Shown piece after piece: positions 32,291 to 35,819 of a stretch of DNA of 64,000 nt (the first letter of the stretch is position 1; every line of letters begins with the position of its first letter). Both the position numbers and the translations under genes were made by a program. The stretch lies in contig CAMYLC010000098.1 in NCBI GenBank assembly GCA_947259195.1, positions 497-64,496 on the forward strand. Direction: 5' to 3'. The notes below the pieces were generated by a model. It was given only the letters and a program-made list of their open reading frames with translations. It ran no database searches and was not told the origin of the DNA. Source of the stretch: Thermoanaerobaculia bacterium. Lineage in GTDB: Bacteria; Acidobacteriota; Thermoanaerobaculia; Multivoradales; JAHEKO01.

Positions 32291-34398
32291 TTCTGATCAC
32301 TAAGGCTGTTGATGTAGTTGACCCGATTCCCGTCGAGGATCGCGTGGCGAAGGGCTTCCATGATGAAGCAGTACGTCAGGTCTACCTCGGCCTCGGCCGC
32401 CCCCTCGAGGGTTCCCTTCGGATCGCGGCGATCGAATCGTACCTGGAAACCGGGGCCTGTGAACGCGATCTCGCTGGCTTCGACCCGCAGCTCGAACTCC
32501 TGTCCTTGGAAGCGACCTCGCACCTGGTCGAGATCTGCCTGCCTCTCCATCTGGAATCCATCGAGCTCGCTCGATCTGGTCCAGTCCTCGGCTCGACGGA
32601 AGAAGCGCGGCTTGACGACATAGGGTCCGCCATCTTCGGGGCAGAAGACGTCGCAGTTGCCACACTCGTTGCAGAAATCGGCAAAAGTGCCGATCTGGTG
32701 CCGCTCCTGGAGTTTCAGGGTGCCCGTCTGCGTCCAGTCCCACCCCTCAGCTCGCCGTTGCACTTTGATGACGGGAATCTCCTCTTCTCCGACACGGTAA
32801 GTGAAGTTGGCATCGTTCGGGCAGACCGGTACGCAGAGGTCACAGGTGATGCAGTCGAACAGTTGCAGGTGGCGGCCGATCTTGCGCGGCGGGTTGGAGT
32901 TGTGCTCCCGGCCATATCGGGGATCTCGAGCCACGGCCTCGACATAGCGCTCCGTATTCAACAGCTTGGCGGCAGAGACCCACCGGTTGAAGAGCTCGTG
33001 CCCAGCGGCCCGTCTGAGGGCACCCCCAACCGGCAGGGCCTCGAGGCAGGCCTTTCGTTGTGGATTCTCCGGCGAGTCCTCCACCTTATCGAGGGCGTCT
33101 GCGGCCACGCCGTGGGCTCTGAGGATGTAGTCGTCTACGCTCCGTGCACCCACCTCCTCCATGCGTCGCGAGAGTTGGGAGTGGTAGGCCTGCATCCGGC
33201 CATACCCGCCCTTCTTCAGCAGATCGGTGCAGACCGTCACCGGCACGAGTCCCAACGCTACTGCGTCCGGGAAATTGATGCTGTCGATGCCGGCCGAGAA
33301 GGACACCGGGATCCGGTCGCCGAAGTGCCGCCGAAAACGCCTCACCAGATGCATGGCCAGGACATGAAGCGGCGGTCCCGACAAGTAGACCTCCTCTTCG
33401 CTTTCAGGCAGGAACCCCTGATTGTTCTCAACGATAAGGGTGTTGGTGAACTTGGCCCCCAGGCCAAGGTCGAGCGCCAGCGCCCTCTGCTCCAGTCGCT
33501 CCATCATCGCAACGGCCTGCTCCCAGGTCGTATCCCGCTCGAAAGCGCTCTCCGGCACCCGAATCTCGTGGTAGCCGAGGCTGTCGTGCAGCAGATGTGC
33601 GGTCTCTTCACTGCCCAGAAGCATGGGGTTGAATTTGACGACGCAGTGGAGCCGATACTCCTCCATCAGAAACAAGATGATGCTCTCGATCTCCTCCGGG
33701 GGGCAGCCGTGAAAGGTGCTCAAGGTCACCGTGTCCGCCAGGGCGACGGAAAAGTCCAGGTCACGCAAAGTGCCCAGCTCGGTGGGAATCTTTCCTCGAA
33801 GCCGCTCGACGGTCTCTCCGGACCGCATCATCCCTTCGATGAACGCGCGCACCCTGGCCGAACGGATGCCACTCAGGTCGTATCCCACGCTCAGGTCGTA
33901 GACAACGTCTCGAGACTCTCGACTCGCGCCAAGCTGGCCACTGGCTGCGAGCATCTCGATCAGCATCGAGCCCTTGACGTACTCGTCGAGGGACTCCTCC
34001 AGCTTGAGCTCCTGCGACCACTCGGCGTTGAAGCCGACGGTCCGCATGTCGATGCAGGGCCGCGGGATCTGCAGCTCGTCCAGAGCCTGCACCGTCTTGA
34101 GCTCCAGTATGCGGGCGCCGCCCAGCCAGGCCAGGACGAGGTTCTGTGCCATTTGCGTCTGCGGACCAGCGGCCGGTCCCAACGGACTGGGTACCCGGTG
34201 CCGGTGGAAGCTCACCGAGAAGTCCTGGCTCTGCGTCGGTGCGAAGAACCGACTCTGCGGCAGGTCGAAGATCGAGCCGCGCTCCTCGAGCTCCCGGAAC
34301 ATGCGTCGCGCCAGCGCGGCAAAGGGGTAGGGTGTGAGCTTCAACTGCCCAGATCCTTCGTGAAGACCGAGCGGGGAGGGGCGTTCGGGTAGGCCCAC
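32287..34398 (-). CDS. YgfK-like TIM-barrel + 2x[4Fe-4S] oxidoreductase lacking the GltD-like flavin/NAD(P)H module
   Basis: PLGPAAGPQTQMAQN, ELKTVQ and TLSTFHGCPPEEIE match the YgfK N-terminal half. CITCDLCVPVCPNDAN and FCNECGNCDVFCPEDGGPY match its C-terminal ferredoxin domain. An alternative start at TTG 34342-34344 gives a TTGA overlap with the upstream stop. Confidence 0.85.
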   Translation of the reverse strand: MGLPERPSPLGLHEGSGQLKLTPYPFAALARRMFRELEERGSIFDLPQSRFFAPTQSQDFSVSFHRHRVPSPLGPAAGPQTQMAQNLVLAWLGGARILELKTVQALDELQIPRPCIDMRTVGFNAEWSQELKLEESLDEYVKGSMLIEMLAASGQLGASRESRDVVYDLSVGYDLSGIRSARVRAFIEGMMRSGETVERLRGKIPTELGTLRDLDFSVALADTVTLSTFHGCPPEEIESIILFLMEEYRLHCVVKFNPMLLGSEETAHLLHDSLGYHEIRVPESAFERDTTWEQAVAMMERLEQRALALDLGLGAKFTNTLIVENNQGFLPESEEEVYLSGPPLHVLAMHLVRRFRRHFGDRIPVSFSAGIDSINFPDAVALGLVPVTVCTDLLKKGGYGRMQAYHSQLSRRMEEVGARSVDDYILRAHGVAADALDKVEDSPENPQRKACLEALPVGGALRRAAGHELFNRWVSAAKLLNTERYVEAVARDPRYGREHNSNPPRKIGRHLQLFDCITCDLCVPVCPNDANFTYRVGEEEIPVIKVQRRAEGWDWTQTGTLKLQERHQIGTFADFCNECGNCDVFCPEDGGPYVVKPRFFRRAEDWTRSSELDGFQMERQADLDQVRGRFQGQEFELRVEASEIAFTGPGFQVRFDRRDPKGTLEGAAEAEVDLTYCFIMEALRHAILDGNRVNYINSLSDQK

Positions 34399-35819
34399 TT
34401 GCGCACCGCGACGGCCTCCTTGACATGGTCGATGATCTGCAGCGAGATCTCGGTCACGATCTGTTCCAACTCTCCTTCGGTCAACTCCATAATAAGACCG
34501 TCGACGGCGTCACCGATCATCGCTTCCACGGTGGCGTGGCCCTCCTCGCTCGACAGCGTCGCCGCCAGGGTATCAGCGAAGGCGTTGAAGACGACCTGCC
34601 CGACGGTAACCACGAGGGGCTTGAGTACAGCATCCGGCAACGGCACGAGCCGCAGGGCATCGGCACTTTCCACGGCCTGCTCGAGGTTGGTGTTCAGGAA
34701 GCCCCGCGCCTGCTCCCTGACCGCCTCGCTGGTCAGCGCCTCCCGTACCTGAGTGGCCAGCTGGTGGCTCAGTGCCTCGCGGTGAGTCGCGGCCACAGAG
34801 TGGATGATCTTCTGATGGGTCCCGTCACGGATCTCGGACTGGGTCTCGTTGAGGATGCGCAGGGACACCATGTCCGAGATCTCTTCGCTGATGATGTTGG
34901 CAAAGTACTTGACCGCACGGCTGATGACGTCGTCGCCCACTTTCGAGTACTCGCTCTGGTGCAGGCGAATGTAGATGGAAGCGACGCGAAACAGGCGGAA
35001 GAGCCGGAACTGTCTGAGTGGGATGATCCCCAGCAGGTCGTACCAGTGGAATATCGGGTACAGAAACCAGGTGGCGTAGGTCCCTCGGCGAATGGAGAGA
35101 AACCAACCAATGAAGAAATCCGCCGCGAAGATCAACAGGAAGGGAAGATCAATCTTCCAGAAGTTGTCGGTGAGATTCCCACTCAGGTCGTAGGTCCGGT
35201 AGAAGTTGACCTCCATCAAGGGCGCCACTACGTCCTGAAAGAACTGAACCCTCCCGGGAAGCCTTTCGGGTACCGGTTGCAACGACCAGAAGTACTGCAA
35301 CCCCTCCTCGCCGGTCATACCCTGCATGACCGCCATTCCTCCAGGCTCGCCCCGGAGGTACAGCTGCATCTCTTTGAGCACGCGAATCAAGCTCTGACTC
35401 AGTCCCGAGCGCTCGAATGGGTTGTCTTCCACTATGGTCACGGCGAGAGTCCGTATCTCCGCAAGAGTCGGTTCGAGGTCGACAGGCGGGGCAGCCGCCG
35501 CCATCTGCTTGGTCAGGCGATCGACGAGCGCGAGGGCTTCCGAGGTGAGCGGTTCGGGCTCGATTCCCTTGACCGGATCATAGATCCGCGTGATCGCCGG
35601 AAAGCGTTGGAAGTAAAACGGCCGCAGCCAAAGGTAGGTCAAATCGAACAGGATGAGGCCGAGATTCACGATGGCCAGATAGACCATCAAGAAGTCCCAC
35701 GCCAGCCGCGGCGTGAGGCTCCTCACGAATGCCCGTAGTCGAGCGATCCTACTTTCCCTGCTCATAGCCAGAAGCAAGCGTAACGCAAAGCTACTTCGCC
35801 AGGCGTTGGTGGATTGCAC
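34341..35819 (-). CDS. membrane protein with a voltage-sensor-like S1-S4 module, no pore domain, and a ~200-aa helical cytoplasmic tail
   Basis: Hydrophobic helices at residues ~40-66, 223-243 and 249-267, then the S4-like LRQFRLFRLFRVASIYIRL (nt 34962-35018) with Arg at every third position. GTG start at 35819; ATG 35765 is an alternative. Confidence 0.7.
   Translation of the reverse strand: MQSTNAWRSSFALRLLLAMSRESRIARLRAFVRSLTPRLAWDFLMVYLAIVNLGLILFDLTYLWLRPFYFQRFPAITRIYDPVKGIEPEPLTSEALALVDRLTKQMAAAAPPVDLEPTLAEIRTLAVTIVEDNPFERSGLSQSLIRVLKEMQLYLRGEPGGMAVMQGMTGEEGLQYFWSLQPVPERLPGRVQFFQDVVAPLMEVNFYRTYDLSGNLTDNFWKIDLPFLLIFAADFFIGWFLSIRRGTYATWFLYPIFHWYDLLGIIPLRQFRLFRLFRVASIYIRLHQSEYSKVGDDVISRAVKYFANIISEEISDMVSLRILNETQSEIRDGTHQKIIHSVAATHREALSHQLATQVREALTSEAVREQARGFLNTNLEQAVESADALRLVPLPDAVLKPLVVTVGQVVFNAFADTLAATLSSEEGHATVEAMIGDAVDGLIMELTEGELEQIVTEISLQIIDHVKEAVAVRKWAYPNAPPRSVFTKDLGS

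Follow-up and report, generated by a model that had tools for sequence, protein, structure and literature searches.

The subject of this analysis is a gene on the reverse strand of a 64,000-nucleotide stretch of DNA from a Thermoanaerobaculia bacterium (contig CAMYLC010000098.1, positions 497 to 64,496; hereafter the window), which encodes a membrane protein with the hallmarks of a voltage sensor and no pore. Few protein modules have been studied as thoroughly as voltage-sensor domains and, to our knowledge, the only ones described apart from channels are eukaryotic (Hv1, voltage-sensing phosphatases, TMEM266 and SLC9C1). In the window protein, four helices (S1–S4) run directly into a soluble helical tail, and this pairing is constant across a bacterial family. 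The S1–S4 domain is probably a remote homologue of the sensor in bacterial voltage-gated cation channels, judging by sequence comparison, and we consider it likely that the protein shares ancestry with the voltage-sensor fold while having no pore. For genuine voltage sensing with signalling by way of the tail, we put the odds at even at best. We regard the reading as a whole, a stand-alone putative membrane-potential sensor consisting of a pore-less S1–S4 domain with output via its own tail, as evenly poised.

An initial annotation, made from the sequence alone, had proposed an open reading frame at 34341–35819, and translation bears this out, giving 492 amino acids (aa) when counted from the first possible GTG (35819). 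The start is almost certainly the ATG at 35765 (M19 in the 492-aa numbering, which is used for residues throughout), because the relative at locus L001 (79% identical) has an in-frame stop codon upstream of the equivalent ATG and because most close homologues are 474 aa long. Read from this ATG, the gene for the pore-less voltage-sensor-domain protein occupies 34341–35765 on the reverse strand, encodes 474 aa and ends with a TGA stop codon at 34343–34341. The four motifs quoted in the initial annotation were each found where it had placed them: an S1-like segment (LAWDFLMVYLAIVNLGLILFDL, aa 39–60), an S2-like segment (LLIFAADFFIGWFL, aa 228–241), an S3-like segment (FHWYDLLGIIPL, aa 257–268) and S4 (LRQFRLFRLFRVASIYIRL, aa 268–286, nucleotides 34962–35018). 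S4 had been described as carrying four arginines at 3-residue spacing plus a fifth, and these are read directly from the sequence as Arg269, Arg272, Arg275 and Arg278, at every third position, together with Arg285. The S1–S2 loop, put at about 155 aa, measures 156 aa, and the acidic helical tail, put at about 200 aa, measures 204 aa with a net charge of −14 and is all-helical in AlphaFold models.

All parts of the protein lie on the reverse strand. The S1 helix (35628–35699, aa 41–64) has a hydropathy peak of 2.1, matches an AlphaFold helix at residues 37–62 and is coupled to S2 in antiparallel fashion. The S1–S2 insert (35160–35627, aa 65–220; net charge −6) is found in only one of the two forms of the family described below, is predicted to be periplasmic and helical (predicted local distance difference test score, pLDDT, 91–97), carries the conserved motifs DPVKGIEPxPLT and NPFERSGQ and has no cysteines. 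The S2 helix (35091–35159, aa 221–243) contains Asp224, Phe231 (the aromatic residue of the putative charge-transfer centre) and Asp234, as indicated by conservation and by the alignment register with bacterial channels. The S3 helix (35019–35069, aa 251–267) contains Asp261 and shows antiparallel couplings to S2 and S4. The S4 helix (34956–35018, aa 268–288) carries the five arginines and couples with S1, S2 and S3, and the predicted cytoplasmic helical tail follows (34344–34955, aa 289–492).

A full voltage-sensor signature consists of outer acids, an aromatic plug, inner acids and a register of arginines. To judge from alignments, the family holds all of these, with spacing identical to that in NaChBac. 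In an hhalign comparison with an alignment of bacterial sodium channels (BacNav), D224, F231, D234, position 238 and D261 fall on NaChBac D60, F67, E70, R74 and D93, and R272, R275 and R278 fall on R116, R119 and R122 (R2–R4). In S1, N52 and D59 lie seven residues apart, as do N36 and E43 of NaChBac, and both family residues are invariant across a 52-sequence alignment. Conservation was counted over 127 representatives clustered at 50% identity. D224 and F/Y231 are each kept in 126 of the 127 and D/E261 in 125, as is E/D234, which is Asp in the query and Glu in most members; position 238 is Arg in 100. The initial annotation had named the absence of a conserved arginine register in orthologues as one finding that would refute it, and the register is conserved: R278 is present in 125 representatives, R275 in 118 and R272 in 85. 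R285 is present in 111, and R269 is specific to the query's subclade. The motifs are not a product of chance, because they are near-universal across the 127 representatives.

The family comprises at least 569 clusters at 50% identity. An exhaustive profile search of 1.84 billion cluster representatives returned these 569 at E ≤ 1e-3, with 249 at E ≤ 1e-30. A word-indexed search recovered at least 211 relatives, none with a Pfam domain and all annotated as "hypothetical", one of them with a stray EcfT transporter label (JGI); no model in Pfam or NCBIfam covers the protein family. A scan of species-representative genomes gave 79 loci, mostly in metagenome-assembled genomes (MAGs) of Acidobacteriota (Thermoanaerobaculia, Holophagae and Sulfomarinibacteraceae), one of which, L005, is a Thermoanaerobaculia MAG 96% identical to the window. 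The remaining loci belong to Leptospiraceae (including the cultured Leptospira ognonensis) and Myxococcales. Altogether, the lineages in which the family occurs are Acidobacteriota, Leptospiraceae, Myxococcota, Marinobacter, Bacteroidota and Balneolales.

Hidden Markov models applied domain by domain distinguished two main architectures. The long form, as in the window, consists of S1, a conserved insert of approximately 140–155 aa (longer in Leptospiraceae), S2–S4 and the tail. The short form (315–385 aa, typically about 340 aa) has a compact S1–S4 followed by the same tail and lacks the S1–S2 insert. Short forms were found in cultured Marinobacter species, Ketobacter, Bacteroidota and Balneolales (for example L084:6001–7044, L085:6001–7110 and L086:6001–7059; proteins P0182–P0262 and P0388–P0505). 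A few of them are named "ion transporter" at NCBI and the rest "hypothetical protein". The two forms align with each other from S2 to the C-terminus at 100% probability in hhalign, and the sensor and the tail occur together in both, in nearly all complete members. Because both forms share S2–S4 and the tail, the conserved unit of the family is the sensor-like domain plus the tail.

Profile comparisons link the S1–S4 domain to voltage-gated channels. Family members match the Pfam Ion_trans model (PF00520) below threshold over positions 3–117 of its 241, which is the S1–S4 half. The signal is clearest in the short form, where five of the seven proteins tested first gave a match (best E 0.0039, 16.9 bits), as did 17 of 43 (best E 6.1e-5); among long forms, 5 of 52 match. 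In hhalign comparisons against the BacNav alignment, the short form reached 84.6% probability (E 6.8e-6) and the long form 55%, and sub-alignments restricted to the sensor reached 89–89.5% (P ~2e-6) with S2–S4 in register. A reversed-BacNav control gave 3.5% (P 0.012). Profile searches of PDB with the long- and short-form alignments returned NaChBac in the same register at E 1–4 only, as the sole membrane protein among the weak matches. The other weak matches (PheRS, mitoribosomal proteins, HapE and Pumilio) were treated as noise. Taken together, the profile evidence for voltage-sensor homology is consistent and convergent but sub-threshold.

Helix positions were taken from structural models and helix packing from residue covariation. 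AlphaFold2 models of the long and short forms have mean pLDDT values of 84 and 86, respectively, with helices at S1–S4; scores are 91–98 over S1–S2, insert included, and 81–94 over S3–S4. Coevolution was analysed by mean-field direct couplings over 332 family sequences (effective number of sequences, Neff, 197), taking the top 60 pairs. These contain seven S1–S2 pairs with i+j of 81–87, forming an antiparallel ridge, as well as antiparallel S2–S3 and S3–S4 ridges, eight S2–S4 pairs and three S1–S4 pairs. The helices form a four-helix antiparallel bundle in which S4 packs against S1, S2 and S3. Since S4 is coupled to all three of the other helices, the arrangement is sensor-like and not that of a surface amphipathic helix. 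The distribution of charge (N-terminus +5, S2–S3 loop +2, and the negative insert and tail given above) fits a positive-inside, N-in topology.

The statement in the initial annotation that no S5-P-S6 pore follows S4 is supported by the properties of the tail. Among 366 members, the region after S4 spans 202 aa at the median and its maximum 19-residue hydropathy has a median of 1.17, so that most members have no stretch there hydrophobic enough for a transmembrane helix; the query value is 1.59 (aa 396–423). We considered this stretch of the query as a fifth transmembrane or pore helix and rejected it, since the short-form equivalent is charged and the family median is low. No selectivity-filter motif of the K+ or Na+ type (TxGYG, LESW) occurs in 385 family sequences, and the Ion_trans matches end at position 117 of 241. 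On these grounds, there is no pore after S4.

Conservation is high immediately after S4 (VGDD..SR..YF.NII.EEISDMV.LRILNETQ.E.R.GTH), and the first helix of the tail is the most conserved part of the protein, with invariant G295, D297, R301, E312, E313, D316 and R321. When the query was searched as a single sequence against Pfam, NCBIfam and PDB, the only match was to DUF445 (PF04286; E 0.0095), at 16.3 bits against a gathering cut-off of 33.8 bits. Sub-threshold matches between the tail and the helical core of DUF445 were obtained for 27 of 52 long forms (best E 3.7e-4) and for none of the 43 short forms, and an hhalign comparison of the tail with E. coli YjiN, a DUF445 protein, found nothing. 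We know of no function for DUF445 proteins such as YjiN. With no member at or above 33.8 bits, no short-form matches and a null result for YjiN, membership of the tail in DUF445 was not adopted and is an unconfirmed lead.

These observations suggest how such a protein could work. The N-terminus would lie inside the cell, the 156-aa S1–S2 insert in the periplasm and the tail in the cytoplasm. R272, R275 and R278 (with R269 in the query's subclade) would lie in a crevice lined by D59, D224, F231, D/E234 and D261, and a change in membrane potential would shift S4 past the Phe231 constriction. This movement would be passed to the invariant acidic helix after S4 (EEISD...R), which would occupy the place of the S4–S5 linker of channels. 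A change in the conformation or interactions of the tail would then be the output, and we infer both this effector role and a downstream target on which the tail would act.

Several results weigh against a working, channel-derived sensor. Position 238 is Gly in the query itself, an Arg at R1 is missing in most family members and R272 is missing in about one third. The query alone gave no Ion_trans match at E ≤ 1, no family member reaches the Pfam Ion_trans cut-off (25 bits), and the hhalign alignment spans S2–S4 only. Foldseek searches of both whole-chain models against PDB found no match to solved voltage sensors at E ≤ 0.001, the tail matched no known fold or enzymatic motif in Pfam, NCBIfam or PDB, and no gene partner is conserved across the family at the loci of the lineages described below. 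In the Foldseek searches, the top ranks were taken by coiled-coil and long-helix proteins (chemoreceptors, SH3BP5 and ciliary proteins), with NavAb ranked 25th (E 2.4) and KCNQ2 at E 4.8. Because whole-chain helical models suit this method poorly, we set the Foldseek results aside as evidence either way.

The S1–S2 insert raises the question of whether the fold serves another purpose. The four-helix domain could anchor the protein in the membrane or respond to a lipid or ligand, with the long-form insert as its input and the arginines and acids acting as structural salt bridges. The insert is very highly conserved and confidently modelled, approximately 90 aa of the long-form model give weak saposin-like Foldseek matches (template modelling score, TM, 0.65–0.72 when normalised on the target), and family members differ in how many charges S4 carries, all of which favour such a role. 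The short form, however, lacks the insert and keeps all of the sensor signatures and the tail, and the saposin matches are non-significant. Working sensors are defined by the aromatic plug, the inner acids and the 3-residue arginine register together, and it is these, with both inner acids, that the family conserves jointly. On balance we consider a sensor fold that does not sense voltage unlikely. The structural matches in question are to saposin A and saposin D (E 6.5–7.1, on targets of 77–80 aa), and the stretch of about 90 aa that gives them may be a small lipid-binding-like helical bundle, for which the S1–S2 insert is one candidate.

Returning to the reading of a pore-less sensor with its own output domain, the closest likeness is to the sensor of NaChBac and other BacNav channels; the module is probably homologous to the BacNav/Kv sensor and resembles it in its workings. 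Both have four helices S1–S4 with the S1 Asn...acid pair, the S2 Asp-7-Phe-3-Glu-4-Arg pattern, the S3 Asp and an S4 Arg at every third residue, and BacNav was the best and sole membrane-protein match of the profile searches. The family differs in lacking the S4–S5 linker, S5, P-loop and S6, in the roughly 200-aa soluble helical domain into which S4 runs, and in the 140–155-aa periplasmic S1–S2 insert of its long form, and the similarity lies below family thresholds. The voltage-sensing phosphatases (Ci-VSP/TPTE) follow the same logic, in that the end of S4 links a sensor to an effector in the cytoplasm, which takes the place of the pore. They differ in their effector, as no match to a PTEN-like phosphatase or C2 domain was obtained here in Pfam, NCBIfam or PDB.

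Hv1 and TMEM266 share with the family a sensor without a pore domain and an S4 that is extended directly by a helical cytoplasmic region. Their cytoplasmic region is a short coiled coil, whereas the tail described here comprises several helices over about 200 aa, and neither protein was among the PDB sequence-profile matches. This resemblance allows an alternative in which the S1–S4 crevice itself conducts protons or ions and the tail serves oligomerisation or regulation. A missing Arg at R1 favours leak through the sensor crevice (omega currents), and most members lack this Arg and have only three arginines in register. On the other hand, the Asp in S1 that is the selectivity residue of Hv1 is replaced in mid-S1 by the invariant Asn52, and the Trp of its S4 (RxWRxxR) is absent, S4 reading R-L/F-F-R (RLFRLFR in the query). 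The Phe231 plug is almost always kept, and a voltage-opened proton leak would dissipate the bacterial proton-motive force. Reviews describe Hv1 and TMEM266 as confined to eukaryotes, and a 2024 review states that Hv channels are not found in bacteria or archaea. We consider an Hv1-like conductor distinctly unlikely.

A further statement, in a 2023 review, is that all prokaryotic voltage sensors are accompanied by a pore domain, as "verified by database searches". The initial annotation had claimed that no bacterial equivalent of this architecture has been characterised, and this agrees with that review and with the searchable literature, in which, at incomplete coverage, looking for bacterial pore-less sensors, orphan sensors and fusions between a voltage-sensor domain and TIR gave no description of this family. 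What is new, on computational grounds alone, would be the architecture and the domain of life in which a known module occurs, together with the undescribed domain that it is paired with.

One member suggests that the sensor can be connected to other outputs. P0233 (L088:444–1967), a complete protein of 507 aa, has an N-terminal TIR domain (PF13676, 2e-28; ThsB-like in PADLOC) followed by S1, the long insert and S2–S4, without the tail. It is followed by genes for SLOG/LSDAT_prok (L088:2045–2836) and SLATT_1/DUF4231 (L088:3299–3850). A TIR fusion in place of the tail is consistent with a portable sensor module, and the gene context of the locus is that of a nucleotide-signalling conflict system, which hints at depolarisation-sensing immunity. 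Run on the query and two short forms, PADLOC returned no match to a defence system. A broader proposal would be that bacteria hold widespread non-channel voltage sensors, in which a pore-less S1–S4 domain turns membrane potential into a cytoplasmic signal through an undescribed helical domain and is in some cases wired to TIR instead; we regard this as possible, at somewhat less than an even chance.

If true, the family would be the first prokaryotic counterpart of Hv1, voltage-sensing phosphatases and TMEM266, and would give direct molecular access to the way in which bacteria read their membrane potential. A conserved bacterial sensor family without a pore would change the picture in which prokaryotic sensors always come with one, and would bear on whether the sensor or the channel arose first. 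It would also give bacterial electrophysiology a candidate reader of membrane potential that does not conduct ions. The family is tractable, with short forms in cultured Marinobacter species, which are the natural place for experiments to begin, and a long form in L. ognonensis, and the compact 340-aa sensor might serve as a scaffold for voltage indicators.

We also examined the genes around the sensor. In the window, it is followed on the same strand by a short YgfK-like Fe-S protein (32287–34344, reverse strand; TIGR03315, 1.4e-122, model positions 4–417 of 1012; Fer4 families), which matches YgfK over its N-terminal half, carries two 4Fe-4S motifs and lacks the flavin/NAD(P) half. The third gene on this strand encodes a YgeW knotted carbamoyltransferase (31079–32290, reverse strand; NF005538, 5e-186, above cut-off), and an aspartate carbamoyltransferase gene is convergent to them. 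The TGA stop codon of the sensor gene (34343–34341) overlaps a TTG (34344–34342) in frame with the YgfK-like open reading frame. This TTGA overlap, noted in the initial annotation, is present, and AAGGA lies 9 nt upstream of the candidate TTG start. In a scan for promoters and terminators around the sensor gene, no signal relevant to operon structure exceeded chance.

From this overlap, it had been proposed that the sensor is translationally coupled to a redox/carbamoyl-transfer complex of the purine/urate catabolism type and gates or anchors it. The Shine-Dalgarno-like AAGGA at the overlap speaks for this, as does the repetition of the gene order in L001, L005, L006 and L014; L002/L011, L008 and L009 repeat it with a gap. 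To place this in the family, neighbours were surveyed by tblastn and gene calls over all loci, with 6-kb flanks (less where the contig ends sooner); this replaced an analysis of clusters of open reading frames, which antisense shadow frames dominate in high-GC genomes. By tblastn, YgfK or YgeW lies beside the sensor gene only at the loci just listed, which correspond to 6 of the 79 genome loci, form one subclade and share 58% identity or more with the query throughout. The 4-bp stop/start overlap occurs only in relatives that are at least 78% identical (it is also called in L001), and in other members of the subclade tblastn coordinates and gene calls put the gap at approximately 60–145 bp. 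The arrangement can be put down to common descent, because these loci also share a wider synteny (peptidase M14, OsmC, CLC, DUF2891, beta-lactamase and DUF4097).

In L002 the partner is a full-length YgfK of 1148 aa after an 80-bp gap. Distant members stand alone or beside unrelated genes. The homologues P0098 (44% identical; metagenome contig L003) and P0070 (50% identical; metagenome contig L004) stand alone, the first with an unannotated gene upstream and an opposite-strand gene downstream and the second between opposite-strand unannotated genes. The neighbours are acyl-CoA dehydrogenases and an amidase in Marinobacter, a pseudouridine synthase and ammonium transporters in Bacteroidota, Ppx/GppA and QueG in Balneolales, CheD and HDOD in Leptospiraceae, and an aminotransferase and an ABC system in the Thermoanaerobaculales/Sulfomarinibacteraceae clade. 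Coupling to the catabolic operon is not supported, because adjacency is limited to so few loci of one subclade. This distribution largely refutes the proposal, which we consider highly improbable, and the overlap with YgfK is of recent origin, belongs to a single Thermoanaerobaculia subclade and has no part in the mechanism. Of the initial annotation as a whole, the voltage-sensor hallmarks, the lack of a pore, the arginine register and the novelty in the literature stood, and the functional coupling to YgfK/YgeW did not.

YgfK itself occurs beside YgeW in two forms. That of the window clade is approximately 685 aa long and comprises only the N-terminal half with two 4Fe-4S clusters, and the 1148-aa protein of L002 (9422–12868; same contig as L011) keeps the Pyr_redox_2/NAD-binding half. 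The spacing of tblastn hits suggests that the L009 YgfK is also of the long form. A carbamate kinase (AA_kinase) then follows in L001 and L002, with an M20 peptidase as well in L002, as is the case in purine/urate catabolic clusters.

The neighbourhoods of another clade bear on a different possibility, namely a split channel, in which the protein would be the voltage-sensor subunit and would assemble with a pore-only channel that has a gene of its own. In 24 loci of the Sulfomarinibacteraceae/Thermoanaerobaculales clade, 42–45% identical to the query, an MthK-like gene for a pore-only K+ channel lies 1.5–2.5 kb upstream on the same strand, and the available part of the published record gives functional precedent, in that split and heterologous sensor-pore assemblies can function. 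An opposite-strand aminotransferase gene nevertheless lies between the two genes in L090, the sole locus with gene calls, and the proximity is confined to this one clade, being absent from the window clade, Leptospiraceae, Marinobacter, Bacteroidota and Balneolales. The protein moreover has its own conserved 200-aa tail where a pore linker would be. A split channel therefore seems very unlikely to us. The MthK-like gene (Ion_trans_2 + TrkA_N + TrkA_C) is at L090:2533–3531 and at approximately 3300–4500 in the 23 other loci, such as L028, L038 and L069.

Upstream of the ATG at 35765, a short non-coding stretch within 35766–35849 (TTTGCGYTACKCT) ends approximately 12 nt before the start codon and is largely kept across the window, L005, L014, L001 and L006, against an overall DNA identity of 77–96%. 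It may be a promoter or regulatory element of the sensor gene. Further upstream is a DUF4097-like gene (35850–36365, reverse strand) that encodes at most 171 aa, compared with 315 aa in L001. Inside this gene, approximately 520 bp present in L005 (5301–5820) are missing from the window, with the junction at 35989–35999 marked by an 11-bp overlap; either a deletion through microhomology or a collapse in the assembly could account for the gap. Compared with L005, the window also lacks approximately 735 bp (L005 448–1182) at a second junction, at 40092–40106 with a 15-bp overlap, so that two such gaps lie within 5 kb. The second junction falls inside a CLC-like open reading frame (39584–40627, forward strand; Voltage_CLC + TrkA_C) that encodes 347 aa, compared with 583 aa in L001 and L002.

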